The notes under the pieces are model-generated. The model was not told the DNA's origin and made no database searches. It saw only the letters and a program-made list of their open reading frames with translations. Made by a program: the position numbers and the translations under genes. DNA of 64,000 bases from Rickettsiales bacterium UBA1997 (GTDB taxonomy: Bacteria > Pseudomonadota > Alphaproteobacteria > Rickettsiales > UBA1997): assembly GCA_964202895.1 (NCBI GenBank), contig CAXNJM010000001.1:254943-318942 (forward strand), read 5' to 3'. This document shows positions 2,419-55,366 of the stretch, piece by piece (the first letter of the stretch is position 1; each line of letters starts with the position of its first letter).

Positions 2419-3875
<1,457 letters not shown>

Positions 3876-3876
<1 letters not shown>

Positions 3877-4127
3877 TGTCAATAAACATTGAAATTACAA
3901 CCCCTAAAGAGATATCTTTTAAAGGCTCTTGTTATCTCGTAATATTGCCAACAATTAGCGGTGAAGTTGGAATTATGCAAGGTCATGAATCTTTTGTTTC
4001 AAGGCTTTGCGAAGGAGAAATAAAACTATACAATCAATCAGAAGAAATAGTGGAAATTTTTAAAATAACTGGTGGTTTTTGCAAGATAAATGATTACAAT
4101 AATCTATCAATATTAACCGACGAATAA
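3876..4127 (+). CDS. atpC: ATP synthase epsilon subunit, N-terminal beta domain only
   Basis: EITTP, LPTISGEVGIMQGH and ITGGF motifs; overlaps the atpD stop (TAATG). Confidence 0.9.
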
Positions 4128-5805: not shown

Positions 5806-6969
5806 ATGAAAAAAATTAATCTCCCTTTGTTATTTTTATTGTTATTGCTACCTAACTTATTGAGTGCTAAAGAGTATTATAAATTTGACAAAAATCATAC
5901 TAGCATAACTTGGCAAGTTAGTCATTTCGGATTCTCTAGCCCATCTGGAAAATTTGTTGATGTTGACGGAGGTTTTTTTATAAACAAAGCAAAATTACAA
6001 GAGAGTTGGGTTAATATAAATATAAATATCAATAACATATCAACAGGAATCGCAAAATTTGATGAGCATTTAAAAGGAATAGATTTTTTTGATGCAAAAC
6101 ATTTTCCAAATGCTAATTTTCAAAGCACTAAGATTGAAAATATTAATAAAAATTCAGCAAAAATAATTGGCAACTTAACTATAAAAAACGTCATTAAAGA
6201 AGTAACTTTAAATATAAAACTTAACAAAATTGGAATTAACCCATTTACTCAAAAGAAAACCGCAGGATTTAGCGGGGAAACATCCTTCAAAAGAAGCGAT
6301 TTCGGTATTAATTTTGCCATTCCGGGAGTTTCAGATACAGTAAAAATTTATATTGAAGCAGAGGGTAATTTATCAGAAACACCAAAAGATATATCAAAAA
6401 TAAAAAATTATAAACAAAAAGAAGAGCTTTCCAATCAAGAAAAAGTTGCTAAAAAAATGAAGATAAAAGAATGGAATATCATTGATTCAAAAAGCTCAAT
6501 TGAAATTTTAACAAATCAAAATAAAAGTTCAATTAATGGAAATTTTAAAAAATTTTCAGGCAAAATATTCTTTGATCAGCTATTTCCGACATATAGCTTT
6601 ATTGAATTTGAGGTTGATACTAATTCTATTGAATTAAGCTTCGAAGAAGCGGTAGAAGCTGTTAAAAATAATATTTGGCTTGATAGCATTAAATTTCCTA
6701 AGGCACTTTTTCGCTCTACCTCAATAGCAAAAATTAGTGATAAAAAATTTTTACTATCAGGAGTATTGACAATTAAAGGCATTTCCAGAAATATCAGCAC
6801 AACATTTAATTTACAAGAGATTAACTCCAGAGAATTAATTGCAGAGGGAGATTTTACTATTAATCGTCTAGATTTTGGCATCGGAAACAATAAAGATAAT
6901 CAGTCAAAATCTATAGATCAATTAGTTGTAATAAAATTCAGAATTGCCGGAGAAAATATATTATTTTAA
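5806..6969 (+). CDS. Secreted protein with two tandem YceI (polyisoprenoid-binding) domains
   Basis: Signal peptide; domain 1 has HFGFS..G.F, D.HL...DFFD, GNLTIK and RSDFG; domain 2 has GNF..FSG, WLD..KFP, GVLTIKG and RLDFGIG. Confidence 0.88.
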   Translation: MKKINLPLLFLLLLLPNLLSAKEYYKFDKNHTSITWQVSHFGFSSPSGKFVDVDGGFFINKAKLQESWVNINININNISTGIAKFDEHLKGIDFFDAKHFPNANFQSTKIENINKNSAKIIGNLTIKNVIKEVTLNIKLNKIGINPFTQKKTAGFSGETSFKRSDFGINFAIPGVSDTVKIYIEAEGNLSETPKDISKIKNYKQKEELSNQEKVAKKMKIKEWNIIDSKSSIEILTNQNKSSINGNFKKFSGKIFFDQLFPTYSFIEFEVDTNSIELSFEEAVEAVKNNIWLDSIKFPKALFRSTSIAKISDKKFLLSGVLTIKGISRNISTTFNLQEINSRELIAEGDFTINRLDFGIGNNKDNQSKSIDQLVVIKFRIAGENILF

Positions 6970-7036
6970 TTTTTTCTCAATCAAATGGTTATATCGCAAC
7001 ACAATCATTACTTATCGCATTAAATTATATTTTAAA

Positions 7037-9778
7037 ATGAATAAAAATAACCAAGAAAATACAGAAATAATGATCGAAAAAAAGAATCAACTTTCAGAAA
7101 AATATAATCATCAAGAAATCGAGCCGAAATGGCAAAAATACTGGCTTGATAATGAAATATATCATTGGAAGAATGATAAAAATAAAGATGAAACTTTTGT
7201 GATAGACACTCCTCCTCCAACAGTTTCTGGAATGTTGCATATGGGGCATATTTTTTCTTATAGTCAAGCCGATTTTGTGGCAAGATTTCAAAGAATGTTA
7301 GGTAAAGATGTTTTTTATCCAATTGGCTTTGATGATAACGGCTTGCCAACAGAAAGATTAGTTGAAAAAGTAATTAATCAAAAAGCCAATATTTTTGAAC
7401 AAGAAAATGGTCGCGGATCCTTTGTAAGAAAGTGTCAAGAAGTTGTTGTTGATGCAGAGAAAGAATTTGAAGAATTGTTCAACACCATCGCCCTTTCAGT
7501 TGATTGGAGGCAAAAATATCAAACCATTTCGCCAGAATCGCAAAAAATTTCACAAGCAAGTTTTGTTGATTTGTTCAATAAAAAATTTGTTGAGAGAAGA
7601 TTTGCCCCCGTGCTTTGGGATTGCGTGGATAGAACCGCCTTGTCGCAAGCAGATTTGGTTGACCGCGAAATGCCAAGCGCAATGCATGAAATTATTTTTG
7701 AGGTTGAAGGAAGTGATCAGCCAATCACCATCGCTACAACAAGGCCAGAGCTTCTGCCTGCTTGTGTTGCCGTTATGGTTAATAATAATGATCAAAGTTA
7801 TAAACATTTGTTCAAAGATATCGAATTTGGTCAACAGGGTTTCACAGGTCATTATGCCATCACCGCCTTATTTGGCGTTAAAGTACGAATCATCGCAGAT
7901 GATTTGGTGCAGACGGAAAAAGGAACGGGAGCAGTTATGTGTTGCACCTTTGGTGATGAAACAGATATTAAATGGTGGCAGAAACATAAATTAGAAACAC
8001 GAGTTATTTTAGGTGGGGATGGAAAAATGACTGAATCATTTCACGCTCCCAAGCCAGAAGAAAACAAAGAAAAAAATAATATTTTATTTTGGCATGGCGG
8101 ATTTATTAAGGATGAGCAATGTTTAAATTTGGATAATTTTGAAAAATTGTATGAACAAATTATTTCTGGCAAAAAAATCAAAGAAGCTCGTGATGAAATC
8201 ATCAAAAACCTATCCGAAAAAAAACTCCTGATAAAATCAACTCCAATAACTCACTCGGTCAAATGTGGAGAACGATCTGGCGCGCCAATTGAAATTTTAA
8301 CAATGCCGCAATGGTTCATCAAAATCCTTGATAAAAAAGAAGCGCTCAAAGCCAAAGCGAATCAATGCAGTTGGTTTCCTGAATATATGAAAATAAGGCT
8401 TGAGCAATGGATTGATGGCTTGGCTTGGGATTGGTGCATTTCTCGTCAAAGGTTTTTTGGGGTAAAATTTCCAGTATGGTATTCCAAAAGAAAAGGGGAA
8501 GAAGGAAGAATCTTGATTGCTGATTATAGAAAATTACCAGTTGACCCTTTGATTGATTTGCCAGAAGGATATTCTCGTGATGAAGTGGTTGCCGAAACCG
8601 ATATTATGGATACTTGGGCAACCTCATCAATTTCTCCACAGCTTTCTAGTAAGGGAATAAGCAAGGAAATTGTTTTTGACGAATCTAGACACAATAAATT
8701 GTTTCCCGCTGATTTAAGGCCACAAGCGCACGAGATTATACGCACTTGGGCGTTTTATACTATTGCCAAAGCTTATTTGCATAGCTTGCCAAATAAAAAT
8801 GACCCCTCCCAGCAATCACAGATTGCTACCCTCCCTCAAGGTGAGGGTGATAAGAGTGTGCCTTGGAAAAATTTGATGATTTCTGGTTGGTGCCTTGCTT
8901 CCGATAAAACTAAAATGAGTAAGTCAAAAGGCAATATTATAACCCCCACAAGCTTAATAAAAGAAAAAGGTTCTGATGTTGTAAGATATTGGGCTTCCGC
9001 TTCCAATCTTGGCGCTGATATTGCTTATAGCGAAGAAGTCTTTAAAATCGGGCAAAAATTAATTACAAAATTATTCAACTCTGCTAAATTTTGCTCAATG
9101 AATTTTCATCTTCTAAAGGATGATGCGGAAATTTGCGAAGGCTTTGATCACTGGATTCTAGGAAAATTAAATCAAGCTATAGAAAATTCAAAAAAAGAAT
9201 TTTTAAAATTTGAATATGCTAAAGCAAGAGAAATTATCGAAGAATTTTTTTGGCACTATTTTTGCGATAATTATCTCGAAATTTGCAAAGTTCGTTCTTA
9301 CGGATTAAATGCTGAAAAAATCGCAAATAACGACTTAAATGAAGCGGAAAAGGAACTAATTGTAAAAAAGCAACAAAGTGCAATTAAAACCCTTCAAATT
9401 TGCCTTAATGCCATTCTAAAGCTTTTTGCACCCTTTATTCCTCATATTTGCGAAGAAATTTATTCAATAGTTTTTGAGAAAGAATTTATTGATAAAAAAT
9501 CAATTCACTCTAGAGGAAATATTGCTTTGATTGAAGAAAATATTGCCATTGAAACTAATTTTATATCATTAGGAGATAAGGCTCTGGAGATAATTTTTGA
9601 AGTTAGAAAATGGAAATCAGAAAGAAATTTATCAATGAAAACCACTATTAATAATTTAACCATTATAAATAATCAAAATATTTATCCAATAGAGGTAGAT
9701 GTAGCAAATGTTTGTAATGCATTAAATGTTGATTATAAAAATGATGAAAATAACCATTTAATTGAAATAAATAATTAA
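7037..9778 (+). CDS. valS: Valine--tRNA ligase (archaeal-type/type 2, as in Rickettsiales)
   Basis: IDTPPPTVSG.LHMGH, DWCISRQRFFG, LRPQAHEIIRTW and KMSKS; ATG at 7037 preferred over the upstream TTG, which overlaps the YceI gene. Confidence 0.97.
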   Translation: MNKNNQENTEIMIEKKNQLSEKYNHQEIEPKWQKYWLDNEIYHWKNDKNKDETFVIDTPPPTVSGMLHMGHIFSYSQADFVARFQRMLGKDVFYPIGFDDNGLPTERLVEKVINQKANIFEQENGRGSFVRKCQEVVVDAEKEFEELFNTIALSVDWRQKYQTISPESQKISQASFVDLFNKKFVERRFAPVLWDCVDRTALSQADLVDREMPSAMHEIIFEVEGSDQPITIATTRPELLPACVAVMVNNNDQSYKHLFKDIEFGQQGFTGHYAITALFGVKVRIIADDLVQTEKGTGAVMCCTFGDETDIKWWQKHKLETRVILGGDGKMTESFHAPKPEENKEKNNILFWHGGFIKDEQCLNLDNFEKLYEQIISGKKIKEARDEIIKNLSEKKLLIKSTPITHSVKCGERSGAPIEILTMPQWFIKILDKKEALKAKANQCSWFPEYMKIRLEQWIDGLAWDWCISRQRFFGVKFPVWYSKRKGEEGRILIADYRKLPVDPLIDLPEGYSRDEVVAETDIMDTWATSSISPQLSSKGISKEIVFDESRHNKLFPADLRPQAHEIIRTWAFYTIAKAYLHSLPNKNDPSQQSQIATLPQGEGDKSVPWKNLMISGWCLASDKTKMSKSKGNIITPTSLIKEKGSDVVRYWASASNLGADIAYSEEVFKIGQKLITKLFNSAKFCSMNFHLLKDDAEICEGFDHWILGKLNQAIENSKKEFLKFEYAKAREIIEEFFWHYFCDNYLEICKVRSYGLNAEKIANNDLNEAEKELIVKKQQSAIKTLQICLNAILKLFAPFIPHICEEIYSIVFEKEFIDKKSIHSRGNIALIEENIAIETNFISLGDKALEIIFEVRKWKSERNLSMKTTINNLTIINNQNIYPIEVDVANVCNALNVDYKNDENNHLIEINN
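8802..8850 (+). repeat. REP/RPE-like palindromic element inserted in frame in valS
   Basis: acccctccc-AGCAATC aca GATTGCT-ACCCTC cctcaaggt GAGGGT: two hairpins, GC-rich against the background; encodes extra peptide PSQQSQIATLPQGEG. Confidence 0.65.
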
Positions 9779-14117: not shown

Positions 14118-15359
14118 TTAGTCATCTTTATCGTTAAAATCTTCATCATCGAAGGTTCCGTAGTCTTCATCTTCGCTTTCAAAATCTCCATCCTCCTCCT
14201 CTTCATCCTCGTCTTCTTCTTCGTAGGAATCTTCATCTTCATCATCTTCAAGATCTTTGTTTTTTAGAAGGCTTTTATTTTTTTCAAAGTCATCAAAATC
14301 AAAATCATCAAACTCATTGACTTTTTTTCTATCCTTAATGTCGCTTTCTATTTTATCTCTAGCGGTTAGAATAATTTTGTCTCTTGCTTCTTCAAAAGCA
14401 ATTTTGTAAATTGCAGAATATTCAGTTGCAAGTCTATATATTGCTGTTTCGTATATTATTCTTTCACTGTAAGATCTTTCCGTATCATCAATATCTCTGG
14501 TTAAATCCCTTAAAACTTCTGCAAGCATTATTATGTCGCCAGAATTAATCTTTGTTTCATATTCTTGAGCTCTACGACTCCACATTCCCTTCATTTTTTT
14601 AACACCGCTTCTTAGTATTCCTAGAACTTCATCCATTTTAGCCTTTGAAACCAAAGCTCTCAAGCCAGATTTTTCAGACCCAATAACCGGAACCCTAATG
14701 CTAAGCTTTTCTTTCTCGAAATATAGCAAATAACAACCTACTTCTATATTTTGAATGTTTATAATTTCTATTTGAGTTAGTATACCAACTCCATGAGCAG
14801 GATAAATTAATTTATCACCGACGACAAATTGACTGTTTTTTACTTCTTTTTTAACGACTTCACTTTTTTTAGCTTCATCAACAACTACTTCTTTTTTATT
14901 ATTTTCAATATTTTTTGATTGCATATCTTTACTATTAAATAGATGAAAAGATGCTTTAATATCAAGGTTTTTAGATAATTTTTCTTGAGTTTCTATTGGT
15001 GGTTTAGACTTTTTATCGCTTATTTTATCATAATTAGCCTTTTTTAATTTTTGTTTTTCATCTTTTTTTGCAGTATTTTTATCTTTTGCGACATTAGTAG
15101 ATTTTTTAGATTGTTTTTTGTTAGCAGAATTAGAATCTTCTTTCTTGTTTTTATAATCATTAACCACAGTATTACTAACTTTATCTTTAGGTTTTTTTGA
15201 AGAGCTTTTTTGGGTATTTTTTAAATCTTTAAGACTTTCTTTTGTGTCTTTAGTTTTATTATTTTTTATTATAGTTTTTTTATGCAAGTCTTTTTTGCCA
15301 AGCTCTACTTTTTTTATTTTTTTTAGAGCTTTTTTATTATTCTTTTTTGCTTTAGTCAT
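14118..15359 (-). CDS. carD: CarD/CdnL family RNA polymerase-binding regulator with Lys-rich N-terminal and acidic C-terminal extensions
   Basis: F.VGD..IYPAHGVG, WSRRAQEYETKINSG and SYSER.IYE core; low-complexity flanks. Confidence 0.9.
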   Translation of the reverse strand: MTKAKKNNKKALKKIKKVELGKKDLHKKTIIKNNKTKDTKESLKDLKNTQKSSSKKPKDKVSNTVVNDYKNKKEDSNSANKKQSKKSTNVAKDKNTAKKDEKQKLKKANYDKISDKKSKPPIETQEKLSKNLDIKASFHLFNSKDMQSKNIENNKKEVVVDEAKKSEVVKKEVKNSQFVVGDKLIYPAHGVGILTQIEIINIQNIEVGCYLLYFEKEKLSIRVPVIGSEKSGLRALVSKAKMDEVLGILRSGVKKMKGMWSRRAQEYETKINSGDIIMLAEVLRDLTRDIDDTERSYSERIIYETAIYRLATEYSAIYKIAFEEARDKIILTARDKIESDIKDRKKVNEFDDFDFDDFEKNKSLLKNKDLEDDEDEDSYEEEDEDEEEEDGDFESEDEDYGTFDDEDFNDKDD

Positions 15360-25656: not shown

Positions 25657-26361
25657 CTATATGTTCTTGGATTTTTCTTGACTAGCTTCTTGATTTTCAA
25701 CTTTTGTAGTATGTTTTGAATTGTTAGCTTCGCCAAGGCATTTTGCAGAAGTTGGAGTGGGTTGATTTTTAGGATTCACTTCTTCTTTTACCAAATCAAC
25801 TGCAGATTTAAATCCAGTAATTAATGATGGAGCAAGAGTTTCATCATAACCATTATTATTAACAGCTAAAACAATTTCATTAAGAGCTTTTATAATTGGG
25901 GTTGTAATTTTATCCGGATTAAAACTTCTTGAGTCCCCAATTACACCACCAGGTTGAATACCCAGCTTTTCGCAAGCAAGTGAAGCTAAAGCAAAGCCAA
26001 TTGGACCACCAAGAGCAGTTGAAGCAACCAGCACAAAAAAGAAATAGTCGCTTTTTTCTTTAACTGGAATTTCGGCAAGCTTTTTTAATTGATTTTCTTT
26101 TAAACCCTCCTTTTTCATATCTTCTAAGAAATTTTCTTTTTTTTTCTTCAATTCTTCTTCTGAATCATCTTTCTCTAGAGTCTTATTTTCAAATTGATTG
26201 CCAAAAACAACATCAGGAGAGCAATTATTTTTGCTACCAAAAATAACATCAGGACTCTGTGATTGATTGTTTTGAGAATCTAGCTTATTATCTTGATTTT
26301 GCTGAATAGTATTTATCGGCTGTTGCTTTCCAGTTAAAATTTGATTGTTGTTTTCTGCCAT
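25657..26361 (-). CDS. Hypothetical protein: Q/N-rich disordered ends, one hydrophobic hairpin-like segment
   Basis: 234-aa ORF co-oriented with its neighbours; duplicated SPDV(I/V)FG motif; FFFVLVASTALGGPIGFALASLA. Confidence 0.7.
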   Translation of the reverse strand: MAENNNQILTGKQQPINTIQQNQDNKLDSQNNQSQSPDVIFGSKNNCSPDVVFGNQFENKTLEKDDSEEELKKKKENFLEDMKKEGLKENQLKKLAEIPVKEKSDYFFFVLVASTALGGPIGFALASLACEKLGIQPGGVIGDSRSFNPDKITTPIIKALNEIVLAVNNNGYDETLAPSLITGFKSAVDLVKEEVNPKNQPTPTSAKCLGEANNSKHTTKVENQEASQEKSKNI

Positions 26362-26449
26362 TTGATTTTAAATAATTAGTTTGATAAATATTATTCTAAT
26401 AACTGTAAATTTTATTTTTAAGTAGTCAATATTAACAAATAATCTAATT

Positions 26450-28294
26450 TTAAATTAACGATTTAAAAGCTTCTATTGCTTGACTGATATTTTTTTCATT
26501 ATTGCCACCACCCATAGCAAAATCTGGTTTTCCACCGCCATTTTTGCCTCCAATAATTGTGATTATTGAATTTAATAAATTTATAGCATTATATTTATTC
26601 TGCAAATCAGAACTTAGGGCAATAATTACACTTACTTTATCTTCAAATACTGAAAACAATAGAAATAAAGTATTGTTTTTAAATTGCTCTTTTTTCTTGA
26701 ATTCATTAGCAATTTCTCGTAAATCTTTTGCTTCACAATTTTTAAAAATATTAATTACCAATTCTAGACCGAAAAAATTTACCGACTTAATATTATCAAT
26801 ATCGGAAAGAGTAATTTGCTTTTTTAAGTTGTTAATTTCCTTGTCTGAATTTTTAAGATCTTGTTGTAGACCATTAATTGTTTTTTCTAAATTAATTTGT
26901 TGATTTCGCAAATATTCAATAGCAAAATTTGCAGTTTTTGCTTCTATTCTACGAATTCCAGAAGCAACACTTTTTTCTGAAATTATTTTAAATAAACCAA
27001 TATCTCCGCTTGCACTCACATGAGTTCCTCCACATAATTCAATTGAAGAACCTATTTTAACCACCCTAACCTCTGCATCATATTTTTCACCAAATAATGC
27101 TTCAGCACCGCTATTTTTAGCATCTTCTATCTTCATTAATTTTGTATCAGCACTTTGATTAGCAATAATTTTTTTATTAACGATATCTTCAATAGTTAGA
27201 GCTTCCAACTCAGTAAGCGATCGATTAAAATTAAAATCAAATGTAAAGCTCTCAACATCGACATTTGAACCTTTTTGCATTATTGAATTACCTAAAACTT
27301 CTTTCAAAGTTTTGTGCAATAAATGAGTTGCGGAGTGATTCCTTGCTCTACTACCACGATTTTCTGCATTGATTTTTGTAATGATTTTTTGATTATTGGT
27401 TAATAATTTATTATCCAATGTTTTTGATTCTGGCTTTATTTTAATGTCAATAACATCAATAAAATGAACAATTAAGTCGTTTATTTTTTTCGCTTCAAAA
27501 ATCTTAAATTCATTACCTCTATCATCAAGCAACCAGCCATCATCGCCTTTTTGACCGCCAGAAGTGCCATAGAAAGGTGTTTTATCAAGAATTACAGCTA
27601 AATTTTTATAGTCTTGCTGTTGATGGTGCTCAAAAAATGGTATTGAGTCAATAATTTCATTATCAAGAATTATTGCTAAAATAACAGCTTCGCCTTGTTT
27701 TTGCTCATAACCAATAAATTTCGTCGCTCCGAACTCCTGTTTGATTTTAAAAAATATTTTATCAAGAGATTGCTCTCCGCTACCAACCCAATTTTCTTTT
27801 GCTTTTTGTTTTTGAGCCTGCATTTCAAAATCGAACTCTTCAAGATTAACTGTTAAAGCATGATCCTTAAGAATGTCTTGAGTTAAATCAAGCGGGAACC
27901 CAAATGTGTCATAAAGCTTGAAGGCTAAAGCACCGCTAAACTGATTGGATTTTTGATTTTTAATTTTTGACAACTCTTCGTTTAGTATTTTTAAGCCCCT
28001 ATCAAGAGTATCGCGGAATTTTTCTTCTTCATTTGATAAATTTTCAATAATATTTTCTCTTGCTTTTTTTAATTCAGGATAAACATCTTTAAATTCATTA
28101 ATTAAATCATCGACCAATTTGTGCATTATTGATTCTTTGGCATCAAGTTTATGAAGCTGTAGCATCGCCCTTCTCATTATTCTTCTTAAGACATATCCTC
28201 TACCCTCATTGCTTGGCAACACACCATCAGCAATTAAGAAGCAAGAGGAGCGAAGATGATCGGCAATAATTTTTAATTCTGGTTTAATTTTCAT
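26450..28294 (-). CDS. alaS: Alanine--tRNA ligase C-terminal chain (tRNA-recognition, editing and C-Ala domains); aminoacylation domain absent
   Basis: Starts at IIADHLRS..FLIADGVLPSNEGRGYVLRRIMRRA; FKLYDTFGFP, TPFY..SGGQ.GD, NHSATHLLH, ELCGGTH, GIRRIEA and GGGKPDFA.GG; no class II motifs 1-3. Confidence 0.92.
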   Translation of the reverse strand: MKIKPELKIIADHLRSSCFLIADGVLPSNEGRGYVLRRIMRRAMLQLHKLDAKESIMHKLVDDLINEFKDVYPELKKARENIIENLSNEEEKFRDTLDRGLKILNEELSKIKNQKSNQFSGALAFKLYDTFGFPLDLTQDILKDHALTVNLEEFDFEMQAQKQKAKENWVGSGEQSLDKIFFKIKQEFGATKFIGYEQKQGEAVILAIILDNEIIDSIPFFEHHQQQDYKNLAVILDKTPFYGTSGGQKGDDGWLLDDRGNEFKIFEAKKINDLIVHFIDVIDIKIKPESKTLDNKLLTNNQKIITKINAENRGSRARNHSATHLLHKTLKEVLGNSIMQKGSNVDVESFTFDFNFNRSLTELEALTIEDIVNKKIIANQSADTKLMKIEDAKNSGAEALFGEKYDAEVRVVKIGSSIELCGGTHVSASGDIGLFKIISEKSVASGIRRIEAKTANFAIEYLRNQQINLEKTINGLQQDLKNSDKEINNLKKQITLSDIDNIKSVNFFGLELVINIFKNCEAKDLREIANEFKKKEQFKNNTLFLLFSVFEDKVSVIIALSSDLQNKYNAINLLNSIITIIGGKNGGGKPDFAMGGGNNEKNISQAIEAFKSLI

Positions 28295-28320
28295 GATTAT
28301 TAATATTTTTAATATCTAAA

Positions 28321-29094
28321 CTAAAAGAATAATCCCGTAATAACATAATTCGATAATAATATTATTATCGAAGAGCAGACAACGGCATTAGTGGTTGCAA
28401 TTCCGACTCCCTCAGCACCGCCTTTAGAATTATAGCCAAAATAACAGCTTATTACTGCGATTATCAAACCAAAGACTCCCGCTTTTACAATCCCTAAAAC
28501 AACATCAATTTTTTCTAAAAATTTAAAACTATTGATAATGTAGTTTTCGGGAGAAAATCCTAAAACATAAACACTTACTAGATACCCACCCAAAACACCA
28601 ATGATATCTGCTATCAAAACTAAAATAGGCATCGTAATAACGCAAGCCCATACTCTTGGTGCAACAAGATATTTAAAAGGGTTTGTTGATAAGGTTTTTA
28701 AGGCATCAATCTGCTCAGTTACTTTCATTGTGCCAATTTCGGCAGCAATTGAGGCCCCTACCCTGCCTGCAACCATTAATCCAGCTAAAACAGGGCCCAA
28801 TTCACGAGTAATAGAGAGAACAACAACGGTAGCAATTGTGCTTTCTGCATTAAAACGAGAAAAACCAGAATAACTTTGTAAAGCCAAAACCGCCCCCGAA
28901 AATATTGCTGTTAAACCTACAACTGGCAATGAATAATAACCGATTTGTAAAAATTTTTTTAGAATCATTTTAAAATAAAATGGAGCAACAAAGCAGTTTT
29001 TAATACTACTGCCCGCAAATATTGCAATTGAACCAATTTGACCAAGGTTAAACAACGAAAATTTACCTAACATCTCAATTAATTTAATAATCAT
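28321..29094 (-). CDS. mlaE: MlaE family lipid ABC transporter permease
   Basis: RELGPVL.GL.VAGRVG..IAAEIGTMKVTEQIDAL and GAEGVG.ATT motifs. Confidence 0.95.
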   Translation of the reverse strand: MIIKLIEMLGKFSLFNLGQIGSIAIFAGSSIKNCFVAPFYFKMILKKFLQIGYYSLPVVGLTAIFSGAVLALQSYSGFSRFNAESTIATVVVLSITRELGPVLAGLMVAGRVGASIAAEIGTMKVTEQIDALKTLSTNPFKYLVAPRVWACVITMPILVLIADIIGVLGGYLVSVYVLGFSPENYIINSFKFLEKIDVVLGIVKAGVFGLIIAVISCYFGYNSKGGAEGVGIATTNAVVCSSIIILLSNYVITGLFF

Positions 29095-43814: not shown

Positions 43815-44363
43815 ATGCCAAAAGTTTCCATTGTTGCAAAAAATTACGCCAAAGCACTTTTTAACAGTGCAAAAAAGCATAGCGTTCTTGAGTCAGTTTT
43901 TAAAGAACTAGAATCATTTCGCGATAATTTTAATAACAGTTTTGCCAATGAGCTTAAAAACCCTGTTATTTCAAGACAAGATATCGAAAAAATAATGACA
44001 GAGATATCGCAAAAATTTAACTTCAGTAAAATTACAACTGAATTTTTTGTTACCTTATCAAAGAATCATCGATTAAATCTTTTTCCAGAAATATACCAAG
44101 AATTTAATCGTTTAATAAAAAATCAATCAAAAATAATTTCTGCAGAGCTAATATCTGCCGAAAAAATGATTGATGAACAAATAGAGCAAATAAAATCAAT
44201 CATTTCCAAGAAATATCCCGATAAAACAATAGAAATTATTGAAAAAATTAATAAAAACCTGATTGGCGGGTTTCAAATCAAAATAGATTCCGTTATTATT
44301 GATGCAAGCACTAAAAACGAAATCTCTTTAATCAACGAAAAACTACTTAAAACATTAAATTAA
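43815..44363 (+). CDS. atpH: ATP synthase delta subunit
   Basis: [10 protein letters not shown] and LIGG...I...IDAS; directly upstream of atpA. Confidence 0.92.
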
Positions 44364-44371
44364 CTAAAAAT

Positions 44372-45937
44372 ATGAACTTTAAAGCTTCAGAATTCTCACA
44401 AATTTTACAAAAAACAATCAACAATTTTCAAAGTTCCGCTCAATTAAAAGAAGTTGGAGAAGTAATAAAAGTAGGAGACGGCATAGCCACAGTATACGGA
44501 TTAGACAACATACAAGCTGGTGAATTAGTTGAGTTTGAGGCAATTAATGATAACGGAGTAAATGAACCAGTTAAAGGAATTGCACTTAATTTAGAGTCAG
44601 AAAGCGTTGGTATAGTTATCTTTGGAGATTCTCAAAAAATTAAAGAAGGCTCTAATGTTAAAAGAACCGGTAAAATTATTGAAGTTCCAGTAGGAATGGG
44701 AATGCTTGGCAGGGTTGTTGATGCTCTTGGAAACCCAATAGATTGCAAAGGGCCCCTACAAAATGTTGAATATAAAAGATTGGAAGTAAAAGCCCCTGGT
44801 ATAGTTGCAAGAAAATCAGTCGGTGAACCTATGCAAACTGGCATTAAATCGATTGATTCGCTTATACCAATTGGCAGAGGTCAAAGAGAGTTGATAATTG
44901 GCGATCGCCAAACTGGAAAAACTGCAATAGTTATCGATAGCTTTATAAATCAAGTAAAAACTAACCAAAATGCAAAAAGCGACAAAGAAAAATTATTTTG
45001 TATTTATGTCGCAATAGGTCAAAAAAGATCAACAGTTGCCCAAATGGTAAAAACCCTTGAAGAGGCTGGAGCCCTAGAATATTCAATAATTGTCTCAGCA
45101 ACTGCATCAGAAGCATCGGCCTTACAATTTTTTGCCCCTTATACAGGTTGTGCAATTGGAGAATTCTTCCGCGATAACTCAATGCATGCAGTAATTGCAT
45201 ATGATGACCTTAGTAAACATGCGGTTGCATACCGCGAAATGTCTCTATTGCTTCGTCGCCCACCAGGAAGAGAGGCATATCCCGGAGATGTATTTTATGT
45301 ACACTCTCGTTTATTAGAAAGAGCCGCAAAAATGTCTGATGCTCTAGGAGGAGGATCTCTAACCGCACTACCAATAATTGAAACACAAGCAGGAGACGTG
45401 TCTGCCTATATCCCAACCAATGTAATATCGATTACTGATGGACAAATATTTTTAGAAACAGAATTGTTTTACAAAGGTATTAAACCTGCAGTAAATGTTG
45501 GCTTATCGGTTTCTAGAGTTGGTTCAGCTGCCCAAATTAAAGCAATGAAGCAGGTAGCTGGAACAATAAAGCTAGATCTAGCACAATTTCGTGAATTAGA
45601 AGCATTTGCACAATTCGGTTCAGATCTTGATCCAGCAACTCAAAAACTTCTTGATAAAGGAAAAAAGCTAACTGAATTATTAAAACAAGAACAATATAAA
45701 CCAATTGCGGTTGAAGAACAGGTTGTGACCATCTACACTGGAGTTAAAGGCTATCTTGACAAAGTCAACTTAAAAGATGTTAATAGATTTGAAAAAGAAT
45801 TTATTAGAAAAATCAAAATTTCTCAACCGGATATTTTAGAAAAAATAAAAGAGGAGCAAAAAATATCAGACTCCGTTGAGTTAAGGTTAAAATCTTTTTT
45901 AGAAGAATTCTTAGAAATATTCCTTAACCAAAACTAG
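44372..45937 (+). CDS. atpA: ATP synthase alpha subunit
   Basis: GDRQTGKT and [15 protein letters not shown] motifs. Confidence 0.99.
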
Positions 45938-45950
45938 TAATATTTTTAAA

Positions 45951-46844
45951 ATGGCAAACCTTAAATCTCTAAAAACTAGAATTAAATCAGTGAAATCTAC
46001 TCAAAAGATGACAAAAGCCATGAAAATGGTTGCAGCATCTCGTCTTAGAAAAGCAAGAACTGCCGTTGAATCTTCTCGTCCCTATATTAATAAAATTAGC
46101 GAAATGCTAAATGATATTGCTGGCAATATTATTTTAGAAGGTTCGGAATCAGAATTTCCATTACTAACAGGCAATAAAGAGTCAAAAACTCATTTATTAA
46201 TAGTTTTGTCATCGGATAGAGGTTTGTGTGGTGGTCTCAATGGCTCTACCGCCAAATTGGTAAAATCTCGTATTTCCAAATTAAAATCAGAAAATAAAGA
46301 TATCAAAGTTTTATTTGTTGGTAAAAAAGCTTATGAACTACTAAAGACAACCCATAAAGAACATATAATAAAAACAATAAACGGTGCATTTCGTAGTGCG
46401 GTGCAATTTAATCAAGCTCAAGAAATTGCAAATGAAGTAATTCAAATGTTTACAGAAAGTCAATTTGATGTTTGCGAAATTATTTACAGCGAATTTAAGT
46501 CTGCAATCAATCAAGAGCAAAAGTATCAACAGTTGATACCACTAGAAATAAATCTAAACAAAAAAACTGAAGATAAAGAAGAAGATTTTTCCCCAATATG
46601 TTATGAACCTAATCAAGAAGTAATTTTAAATGAATTATTGCCAAAAAATATTGCTATTCAAATTTACAGTAGAATGTTAGAAAACTTTGCCTCCGAACAA
46701 GGAGCAAGAATGTCTGCCATGGAATCTGCAACAAACAATGCTGGAAAAATGATAAAAAATCTTACATTAGTTTATAATCGTACCCGTCAAGCAAATATCA
46801 CGAAGGAACTAATCGACATTATTTCTGGTGCTAATTCTGTATAA
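45951..46844 (+). CDS. atpG: ATP synthase gamma subunit
   Basis: TKAMKMVAA, SDRGLCG, SEQGARM.AM and RQA.IT.EL motifs. Confidence 0.98.
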   Translation: MANLKSLKTRIKSVKSTQKMTKAMKMVAASRLRKARTAVESSRPYINKISEMLNDIAGNIILEGSESEFPLLTGNKESKTHLLIVLSSDRGLCGGLNGSTAKLVKSRISKLKSENKDIKVLFVGKKAYELLKTTHKEHIIKTINGAFRSAVQFNQAQEIANEVIQMFTESQFDVCEIIYSEFKSAINQEQKYQQLIPLEINLNKKTEDKEEDFSPICYEPNQEVILNELLPKNIAIQIYSRMLENFASEQGARMSAMESATNNAGKMIKNLTLVYNRTRQANITKELIDIISGANSV

Positions 46845-53019: not shown

Positions 53020-55366
53020 ATGCAAAACAAAACCTCCAAACCATCGGCCCCTAAACCATCAGCATTTTCTTTAATTGAGTTATCTATAGTATTGATTATC
53101 ATTGGTTTGTTAGCAGGTGGTATTGTAGTAGGAAGTAGTCTAGTTAAAAGAGCAAGAATAGAATCAGCTAAATCTCTTACTAATAGATCTCCAATTAAAG
53201 CAACAGAAGATCTAGTAATGTGGTTTGAAGGTAGTTTATTAGATAGTTTTGCTAATGGTCAATCAACTAATGGCACATCTATTAGTAGTGGGTGGAATAA
53301 TATTTGGTGGGGTTAATAATATATCATCAGCAACTGTCGATGGCACTGCTCCAATCTATGCTAATAGTATCAACAGCATTCCTGCGGTAAAGTTTGAAGG
53401 TAATAATGCTTTAAAAGTAGGAGTTGACTCAATTAACAACTCTGATTATACTATAATGATAACAGAGCAAAGAGAAAGCAATAAAGCAGATAATTATCTT
53501 TTAGGAGATCCCTCAATTACAGGAACTAATCAAAATTTATTAATTGGTTATAAAACTGATGGCACAATTGTTCATAGTCAGGGGGGAGCAACTACCAGCT
53601 ACACCTCAGCAATTAATGGCTATGCTTCTTATGCAGGTCCAAGAGTAATTATCGTTACTCACTCCGCTAGTGAAGGTAATAAAACCTATGTTAATGGTAT
53701 ATTGGCTGGTAAGCTAACTACTAATACAGCAAAAGAACCTATTGCAGATTTAGCTAATCTCTCTATAGGTAAAAATTATATTGGTCAAATTGGTGAATTA
53801 GCAGTTTTTAAAAGAGCATTATCTGATACCGAAATTACTGATATATCTGATTATATGAGTAATAAATGGCGAATTAAAGTTGATACTAAAAACACAGATT
53901 GTTCTGCTGGTATTGTTACTGATAATGGTTGCGATGCATCTTCTTGCCCAATAAGCATTGCAGGTATCTCTAAAACCTCAGTTGATGGCACTGCCTCTAC
54001 CTCTACTTTAAGTTGTGATAAAACAGGCTATACTGGTTCTATTACTTATAGCTGTATCAATAAAACCTTTGCTACTACTCCTGCCAATGCAAGCTGTTCT
54101 TGTGCTACTGGTTATACTCTTGTCTCTGGCTCTTGTATTCCCTCTTGTAATGTTCCAACTACTAACGGTATTACCACTACTCAAGTTACAGGTAATAATG
54201 GCACTCTTAACTGCACCACTACTGGCTATACTGGCTCAGTTGCTTATAGCTGTGCTTCTCAAGGGTCTAATGCCACCATTACCGGAAGTTGTAGCTGTGC
54301 TACTGGTTATAGTTTAGTAAGTGGAGCTTGTGTACCAATAAACTGCCCAGTTAGTGTTACAGGAATATCTTCTCCATCATCAGTATCTTATACCTCAACT
54401 TCTACCCCTCTTACTTGTAATGCTACTGGCTATACTGGAACTGTTAATTATACTTGCACTACAGGAACATTAACTGCAACAGGGAGCTGTTCTTGTGCTA
54501 CTGGTTATAGTTTAGTAAGTGGAGTTTGTACTCCAATTACTTGTAGTATAACTAGTGTTACGGGAATAAACAACAAAACCGGACTAGCTTATGCATCTTC
54601 TGCTACAGCCATTCCAAACAGCCCAACTTCAGCCTGTGCATCAGGATATTCTGGTTCTCCTACTTATACTTGTAATGCAACTGGAGCTGCGACAATTGTG
54701 AGTAATAGTTGTAGTGCAGCTTGTGCACCAGGTTCTCAAACTTTTAATTTTACAGGAGGACCGCAATCTTTTACAGTGCCTAATAGTTGTACTAGTATTA
54801 CTATTAACGCTTATGGTGCACAGGGAACTGCAGGAACTCAGTCATCTGGTCTAGGTGGTCGTGCTCAGGGTGTTGCTACTGTAACATCCGGACAATCACT
54901 TACTATCTATGTTGGTGGACAAGGTGGGTATAATGGCGGTGGTAGTGGTGGCAATGGAAAACATGGTGGCGGTATGTCTAGTGTTTATATCGCCGGAACC
55001 TTATCTCTTGTTGCTGGTGGTGGTGGAAATGGTCATGGATTTGCTGGATATGCTGGAGGATTTAATGGTGGAGGCGGTCAAGTATCTACTCATGGAGGAG
55101 GAGGCGCTGGTGGTGGATTAAATATTGGTGGAGCTGGTGCAACATCAAATGGTTATGGCATTTATACAGCAGGAATTGGCAGTTATATGGCAGGAGGAAA
55201 TGGTTATGCATATTATTGTCCAGAGGGTGTAGCTGGTGGTGGTGGATATTATGGTGGTGGGGGACAAGGTGGCGGTGGATCATCTTGGACGGGGTCACTT
55301 GCTAGCCCAGTATTTCAAGGCGGAGTTCGCTCAGGAAATGGACAAGTCATTATTAGTTGGCAGTAG
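53020..55366 (+). pseudogene. Type IV pilin-like (prepilin N-methylation) adhesin: LamG-like domain, Cys/Thr-rich repeats and Gly-rich C-terminal domain; +1 frameshift near 53302-53312
   Basis: ORF 53020-53316 has A|FSLIELSIVLIIIGLL and L.MWFE..W; the ORF in the +1 frame continues with LamG-like P..KF.G, YVNG and G.IGELAVF.RALS, repeated SCSCATGY.LVSG.C, and an F.FTG..Q.FTVP...GAQG Gly-rich domain. Pseudogene status is uncertain (phase variation or assembly indel possible). Confidence 0.7.
53946..54720 (+). repeat. About 3.5 tandem copies of a ~60-65 aa Cys-rich repeat in the pilin-like adhesin
   Basis: tgtgctactggttata recurs near 54101, 54296 and 54494; the last two share tgtgctactggttatagtttagtaagtggag; protein pattern C..TGYTG...Y.C...SCSCATGY.LVSG.C. 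Confidence 0.85.

Follow-up and report, generated by a model that had tools for sequence, protein, structure and literature searches.

The beta-chain gene and its surroundings

The stretch of DNA analysed here (the window) comprises 64,000 nucleotides (nt) of contig CAXNJM010000001.1 of Rickettsiales bacterium UBA1997 (assembly GCA_964202895.1, positions 254,943 to 318,942 of the forward strand). Our subject is a gene at 26450-28294 that encodes an alanyl-tRNA synthetase (AlaRS) lacking its first third, hereafter the beta chain. Its features are compiled in Table 1, together with the upstream gene mlaE and a second gene, for the alpha chain, which lies outside the window. An earlier note, made from the sequence alone, had described a clean open reading frame (ORF) of 614 amino acids (aa) with an ATG 26 nt past the mlaE stop; this was borne out, and the strand, which the note had omitted, is minus. 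The estimate that the protein begins about 270-280 residues into a normal AlaRS agrees with the profile matches, which start at position 267 of the Pfam model PF01411 and at position 268 of the NCBIfam alaS model TIGR00344 (484.0 bits against a cut-off of 457.05, model positions 268-847 of 847). The class II catalytic core with motifs 1-3 is absent from the beta chain. Upstream of the ATG the frame stays open for just seven more codons (a 621-aa open frame) and is followed by mlaE; therefore no N-terminal domain is concealed there, and the note was right that no catalytic-domain remnant precedes the gene.

Table 1. Features of the AlaRS genes and of the adjoining part of the window (window positions unless a contig is named)
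Feature	Position	Strand	Details
AlaRS beta-chain gene	26450-28294	minus	614-aa ORF, ATG start, 0 internal stops
tRNA-synt_2c, C-terminal half (helical tRNA-recognition domain and following barrel)	27431-28291	minus	residues 2-288; Pfam model positions 267-540 of 552
PSNE motif, Asn29	28208-28210	minus	read from sequence
YDT motif, Asp129	27908-27910	minus	read from sequence
Editing-site HxxxH, H320-S-A-T-H324	27323-27337	minus	read from sequence; invariant in 14/14 beta chains
tRNA_SAD domain	26942-27070	minus	residues 409-451; Pfam 4.7e-18
CxxxH, C421-G-G-T-H425, inside tRNA_SAD domain	27020-27034	minus	invariant columns in beta alignment
C-Ala (DHHA1) domain	26456-26758	minus	residues 513-613; Pfam 3.2e-12
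Spacer between mlaE stop and beta ATG	28295-28320	minus	26 nt, A+T-rich
mlaE, upstream gene, co-oriented with beta	28321-29094	minus	Pfam MlaE 3.7e-80; TAG stop
AlaRS alpha-chain gene	contig C1 ~664682-665470 (locus L001 1492-2280)	minus	clean 262-aa ORF, outside the window

The Asn of PSNE, the Asp of YDT, the two editing motifs and the C-Ala domain, which the earlier note had listed as retained, are all present, the motifs being legible in the protein and the domains matched by Pfam. In all 14 beta chains compared from the genomes that share this break (type A, see below), N29 and D129 are unchanged. We equate them with Asn303 and Asp400 of Escherichia coli through their offset to the solved AlaRS fragment 3hxu and through a statement in the available part of PMC11392972, which gives Asp400 and Asn303 (E. 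coli numbering) as the residues that read G3 and U70. The model of the free-standing editing protein AlaXM (NF040865) matches the beta chain weakly, with 97.2 bits against a cut-off of 300.

The spacer between mlaE and the beta gene contains no Shine-Dalgarno-like run and no terminator-like site, and promoter-like sites were not above chance (24 found, 19.1 +/- 3.9 in shuffles). The two genes are adjacent in three of the four genomes of the genus, and the beta gene is probably co-transcribed with mlaE.

A separate gene for the catalytic core

The genome (G000), 97.9% complete, consists of 6 contigs with a total of 1,424,960 bases. A search of it with PF01411 gave two matches and no more, covering model positions 1-259 and 267-539. 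The former (C1:664691-665458, minus strand) lies in the alpha-chain gene, a 267-aa open frame in which motifs 1-3 are present, on the same contig and strand as the beta gene and about 381 kb away from it. The alpha gene is preceded by a fadB-like gene and shares 8 nt at its TGA stop with an esterase gene; an Rfam search around the alpha gene gave no match. With 387.1 bits the alpha chain stays below the TIGR00344 cut-off, and in public data one alpha-like protein goes under the name 'hypothetical protein'. The PF01411 profile search revealed no full-length alaS in this genome.

The earlier note had left two readings standing, a heterodimeric AlaRS with its other chain encoded elsewhere or a trans-editing factor beside a full-length alaS. 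The genome search for an AlaRS N-terminus that it suggested recovered the separate 262-aa ORF, which supports a split and thereby the first reading, and the absence of a full alaS excludes the second for this 97.9%-complete genome. Because the genome has no full-length alaS but does have a catalytic-core ORF, we conclude that 26450-28294 very probably encodes the beta subunit of a two-gene bacterial AlaRS and not a trans-editor.

Together the two chains amount to a whole enzyme in which about 14 linker residues are replaced. Their summed length (262 + 614 = 876 aa) falls among those of unsplit relatives (864-912 aa), and when the chains are placed on the whole AlaRS of a related family (912 aa), alpha spans residues 5-258 and beta residues 273-908. 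The four AlaRS modules, which the prototype architecture unites in one polypeptide, are thus distributed over two ORFs 381 kb apart. Among the 35 tRNA genes of the genome, both those for tRNAAla (UGC and GGC) have G3:U70. The tRNA_SAD domain occurs solely in the beta chain and in a 649-aa frame taken as threonyl-tRNA synthetase, and the same search found no free AlaX in the genome.

The cut can be placed on the solved 441-residue fragment 3hxu, where alpha residues 3-257 align to residues 4-268 and beta residues 6-167 to residues 279-437, leaving the break between 268 and 279. In the alignment of split and whole enzymes this is a variable linker that follows the final helix of the catalytic domain and precedes the conserved IADHLRS helix, and in most genomes the new ends carry 5-9 extra residues past the conserved helices. 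An intein, a zipper or an added dimerisation piece was considered and rejected, the summed length being that of a whole enzyme and the ends being extended by those 5-9 residues only. Since alpha ends near 3hxu residue 268, it contains none of the tRNA-recognition module, and both G3:U70 readers lie on beta. The earlier note had likened this boundary to that of the split AlaRS of the archaeon Nanoarchaeum equitans, and here it was mistaken: that break lies inside the tRNA-recognition domain, its alpha chain corresponding roughly to E. coli residues 1-368 according to the accessible portion of PMC11392972, whereas the alpha chain described here stops short of that domain and leaves Asn and Asp to beta.

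Conservation and selection within the family

We examined 25 genomes of the family, consisting of 24 relatives and the window's own. Fifteen carry the same break (type A), four a different one (type B), four a whole gene, one (G014) a gene broken by contig ends, and one (G004, 90% complete) gave no match. The look at sister genomes that the earlier note had recommended thus turned up the same fission in ten genera (G000-G003, G006, G008, G010, G012, G013, G015, G017, G018, G019, G021, G024), with alpha chains of 260-293 aa and beta chains of 606-677 aa. Both chains are intact in 13 of the 15; the alpha chain of G018 is cut by contig ends, and G008 is taken up below. In other families of the order, the gene was whole in 16 of 16 genomes (16 families, one genome each).

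A scan of the whole family (126 genomes, 17 genera) returned at least 84 rows limited to model positions 1 to 255-269 and at least 3 more that were cut, besides at least 10 type B alpha rows and at least 14 whole-length rows. Among the matches listed, no whole alaS of the family's own kind came from a type A genus. One whole-length row of a type A genus (G044) stems from a 2,070-nt contig, and its identity to AlaRS from other families is about 60%; the bin has 3% contamination, and we take this contig to be a stray. The genomes of the family are small (0.7-1.9 Mb).

The concatenated chains gave a tree (34 rows, 871 columns) in which the 14 type A rows, without exception, group as a single clade (SH-aLRT 100), and in a more careful tree the five type A rows included are monophyletic at 100/100. 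This single clade points to one fission in the common ancestor of type A. The ratio of non-synonymous to synonymous substitution rates (dN/dS, NG86, seven pairs) was 0.024-0.080 for alpha and 0.127-0.197 for beta, values by which both chains are judged to be under purifying selection. Alpha chains are 72-99% identical (34 sequences), with invariant columns in motifs 2 and 3. In public data, all 8000 of the 8000 scored candidates of 144-459 aa matched alpha, a set in which true chains are not separable from fragments; the best 120 of these 8000 alpha-length candidates measure 253-294 aa and are 73-99% identical. The public record CAMDGT010000042.1 (L015) contains a beta chain that is 94% identical, and its label 'Rickettsia typhi' looks wrong because the lake habitat and the biosynthetic gene set do not fit it.

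For the gene neighbours, flanking ORFs were clustered at 52 loci. In other families recA precedes the whole alaS at 6 of the 12 loci, and neither split half has retained recA. The type A beta gene lies between RNase J and a gene of the phosphoglucomutase family in four genera and after mlaE in the genus of the window, and the neighbours of alpha vary by genus. Because alpha neighbours vary and neither half keeps recA, the fission may have come about either by duplication with complementary loss or by rearrangement.

The stretch is found, whole or in part, in 20 lake or freshwater metagenome runs from 11 studies. A 2311-nt contig of run X1 corresponds to 26341-28651 with 17 differences and no gaps. 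Run X2, which belongs to a different study and could be the source sample, has a 585-nt contig that matches 27900-28484 without differences. Both contigs bridge the mlaE/beta junction, which therefore is not chimeric, and the doubt that the earlier note had raised about positions 28294-28321 is removed.

Proposed enzyme and complex model

We posit that alpha, as the class II catalytic core, would make alanyl-adenylate and hold the transfer site, and that beta would dock on it non-covalently via the native interdomain surface of the one-chain enzyme, with the C-terminal helix of alpha against the first helices of beta. Beta would then present the acceptor stem and check G3:U70, its editing domain may clear Ser- or Gly-tRNAAla, and its C-Ala domain would bind the tRNA elbow. 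In one-chain AlaRS, C-Ala has a dimer-forming role; here it would probably pair two alpha-beta units into an (alpha-beta)2 enzyme.

A structural model of the pair, also proposed in the earlier note, is consistent with such docking. Alpha and residues 1-190 of beta were modelled in three runs with three controls, giving predicted ipSAE values of 0.92, 0.92 and 0.91 (best control 0.00), 108-111 contacts, a partner pLDDT of 79-80 and at least 91% contact agreement among runs. The modelled contacts join alpha residues 241-262, 24-28 and 63-88 to beta residues 1-25 and 31-72. Of 80 solved complexes used for calibration, 58 attain the ipSAE pass mark, as do 2 of 110 mismatched pairs.

Weighing the evidence

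Several points count against a joint enzyme. The physical association, stoichiometry and activity of alpha and beta are what we infer. The model's passing indicates likeness to a known fold rather than binding and would be expected of the halves of any split gene; it is no proof of binding because solved one-chain AlaRS structures (3hxu, 3wqy) hold both domains, so that model memory is possible. Gene order does not tie the two genes to each other: 381 kb lie between them, and the neighbours of each change from genus to genus. The rate of evolution of beta is three to five times that of alpha, a comparison made for the split chains alone, and constraint on beta may have relaxed after the split. 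In the type A genome G008 the beta frame (L048, G008:C5), 674 aa and otherwise intact, is interrupted by one in-frame stop at the conserved NWVGSG stretch, for which a sequencing error, a polymorphism or recent decay could be responsible. As for expression, the one RNA library with the stretch yielded four short contigs on parts of beta (26322-27633), which are a hint of beta transcription, with DNA carry-over possible.

We consider it improbable that the two chains act apart, alpha as a minimal AlaRS and beta as a free tRNAAla-specific trans-editor, AlaX-like with its own G3:U70 reader and C-Ala, without forming a stable complex. The unlinked genes would suit such an arrangement, as would the complete editing site and tRNA-binding parts of beta, and the alpha chain of N. 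equitans alone is credited with weak, G3:U70-independent alanylation in PMC11392972. The bacterial alpha chain, however, is shorter than that of N. equitans and has no tRNA-recognition residues at all. E. coli AlaRS fragments of this size form the adenylate but are not known to charge tRNA, which argues against independent action. Moreover, both chains retain the native interdomain surface, across which the model confidently places them, and an essential enzyme without G3:U70 specificity would mischarge.

Very improbable, in our judgement, is that the ORFs are decaying pseudogene pieces and that charging depends on an alaS located in the 2% that the assembly lacks or on supply by a host. In favour of this count the state of the assembly, in 6 contigs and 97.9% complete, and the small genomes of the family. 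Decay is contradicted by dN/dS far below 1 for both chains, by their intactness in 13 of the 15 type A genomes examined and by the lack, among the matches listed, of a family-type whole alaS in type A genera. The gene content of the window also looks free-living, with biotin, arginine, proline and tryptophan synthesis, photolyase, the bc1 complex and ATP synthase. A search of the genome for an ATP/ADP translocase (PF03219) found no match, but control genomes gave none either, and hence it is uninformative.

That a misassembly cut a whole alaS and joined its halves to foreign flanks is hardly credible: contig-end breaks did mimic splits in G483, G419, G264, G379, G018 and G014, but here both ORFs are bounded inside a long contig by real starts, stops and flanking genes, the boundaries are shared by 15 genomes from ten genera, and contigs from two runs of different studies bridge the mlaE/beta junction.

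A second break in the sister clade

The two-gene AlaRS described above is not the only split of the enzyme in the family. Type B, found in the genera g3, g5 and g14, has alpha chains of 375-382 aa and beta chains of 527-561 aa, encoded on different contigs. Its cut lies about 110 residues beyond that of type A, in the loop just before the Asp-carrying helix, approximately where the N. equitans alpha chain ends (E. coli 368N in the portion of PMC11392972 available), a correspondence placed by description and not by an alignment with N. equitans. Whole genes occur within the same genera, namely in G077 (g3), G089 (g14), and G007 and G095 (g5); the unsplit 947-aa gene of G077 carries about 25 extra residues at the type B loop.

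The AlaRS tree follows the genera, grouping G016 with G089 (100/100), G077 with G005 and G020 (100/98) and G022 with G007 (96/98), and the type B splits fall on three separate branches beside whole genes. Constraining the four type B split rows together was rejected (p-AU 6e-13), as was constraining the three of g3 and g14 (p-AU 4e-10), the constrained groups having been named after the tree was seen. The type B alpha chain ends in a tail with EKYY in all ten cases examined (DKYY in one), and the whole genes of the same genera have no such tail. Two histories would fit, three separate cuts of the loop whose ends converged, or an old split followed by several re-fusions; the gene neighbours of the type B loci are of no help in choosing between the two. 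Insertions at the type B loop are also seen in the whole enzymes of two unrelated genomes (G826 and G883).

Search for splits outside the family

We scanned with PF01411 a class sample of 400 genomes (at least 90% complete) and a phylum sample of 400 genomes (at least 95% complete) that partly overlaps it. Among the roughly 800 class and phylum genomes sampled, of which the 20 with the weakest or doubled matches were inspected in detail, no separated AlaRS split appeared outside the family. This inspection did not extend to G566, G656 and G830, nor to several genomes at class level whose E-values lie between 1e-155 and 1e-190. The unpublished genomes G173, G348 and G809, included in the samples, have one ordinary whole-length match each.

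The candidates that were inspected fell away for different reasons. Contig-end breaks account for G483, G419, G264, G379, G640 and G669, and adjacent frameshifts in A or G runs for the two unrelated genomes G507 and G734. In G507 (L081, G507:C1) the alaS gene has a one-base frameshift in an A run at model position ~140; in the one-contig genome G734 (L082, G734:C1) the one-base frameshift is in a G run and falls in the type B loop. G369, G329, G408, G439, G290, G185 and G201 have single frames of 605-753 aa that match PF01411 from position 1 to about 450, and G414, G158, G170, G826 and G883 have single long frames. Short one-chain AlaRS of 605-753 aa are thus present in several families of the class.

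Other features of the window

The F1 ATP synthase genes of the window lie about 40 kb apart, with atpD-atpC at 2428-4127 and atpH-atpA-atpG at 43815-46844, so that the usual single operon is broken. The valS product (6944-9778) has its best NCBIfam match in NF009687 (957 bits) and stays below the cut-offs of TIGR00422 and NF004349, the two models common for bacterial valS. At 5806-6969 a 387-aa protein contains two stretches that match the 191-position YceI model, apparently a tandem YceI. No NCBIfam match at 1e-10 was obtained for the ORFs at 25657-26361 (234 aa), 53249-55366 (705 aa) and 14118-15359 (413 aa), and the first of these, just downstream of the beta gene, has no Pfam match either.

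Comparison with known systems and implications

According to PMC10036535 (2023), AlaRS keeps its prototype architecture throughout biology, with N. equitans as the exception, and the accessible text of PMC11392972 estimates further split AlaRS in other Nanoarchaeota only. The latter also states that AlaRS-alpha and AlaRS-beta of N. equitans (NEQ547/NEQ211) together give strong, G3:U70-specific alanylation. We found no report of a bacterial split AlaRS in the full-text literature searched, a scope that leaves out most subscription journals. The system described here resembles that of N. equitans in that AlaRS is encoded by two unlinked genes, with the catalytic core on alpha and editing and C-Ala on beta. 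Unlike the latter, which is archaeal and hyperthermophilic, it belongs to bacteria of the lake plankton. What is new is a bacterial AlaRS split at a previously unreported domain boundary; a two-gene AlaRS as such is known.

With AlaX, the beta chain shares an AlaRS-type editing domain with HxxxH and CxxxH, but it differs in having the whole helical tRNA-recognition domain and C-Ala as well. AlaX proteins occur beside a whole AlaRS, whereas the genome studied here has none. Bacteria are known to possess other heteromeric synthetases, namely the alpha2-beta2 glycyl-tRNA synthetase (GlyRS) and the two-subunit leucyl-tRNA synthetase of Aquifex aeolicus. GlyRS consists of a class II catalytic alpha chain of about 300 aa, related to the AlaRS core, and a tRNA-binding beta chain of about 690 aa, and its genes are usually adjacent. 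This division of labour parallels that of the 262- and 614-aa chains, although family and origin are different and homology of the beta chains is not claimed. The mini-AlaRS of a giant virus is a naturally shortened AlaRS without editing domain and C-Ala (PMC10036535); by comparison, the alpha chain here is the catalytic core alone, with the remaining parts encoded elsewhere.

Such a split also bears on annotation. Because alpha scores below the alaS equivalog cut-off, pipelines may call alaS truncated or leave its catalytic half as a hypothetical protein, and checks of completeness or of essential genes could misjudge these genomes.

The cut between the catalytic core and the G3:U70 reader provides a natural pair for studying charging by the core alone, the addition of specificity in trans and the coupling of editing to synthesis. 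For the family as a whole we offer a tentative picture, which in its full extent we hold to be rather unlikely: AlaRS, regarded as the one synthetase whose architecture is constant across life, would have been split time and again within a single family of aquatic bacteria with small genomes, once (type A) at the boundary of catalysis and recognition, an unprecedented site, with fixation in ten genera, and on at least three branches (type B) in a Nanoarchaeum-like loop. In type A, one subunit would then catalyse and another, expressed separately, would carry all tRNA specificity, which would put to a natural test the idea of catalytic core and G3:U70 reader as separable modules; beta in its free form could additionally serve as a tRNAAla-specific trans-editor, and the ratio of alpha to beta could tune charging against proofreading.

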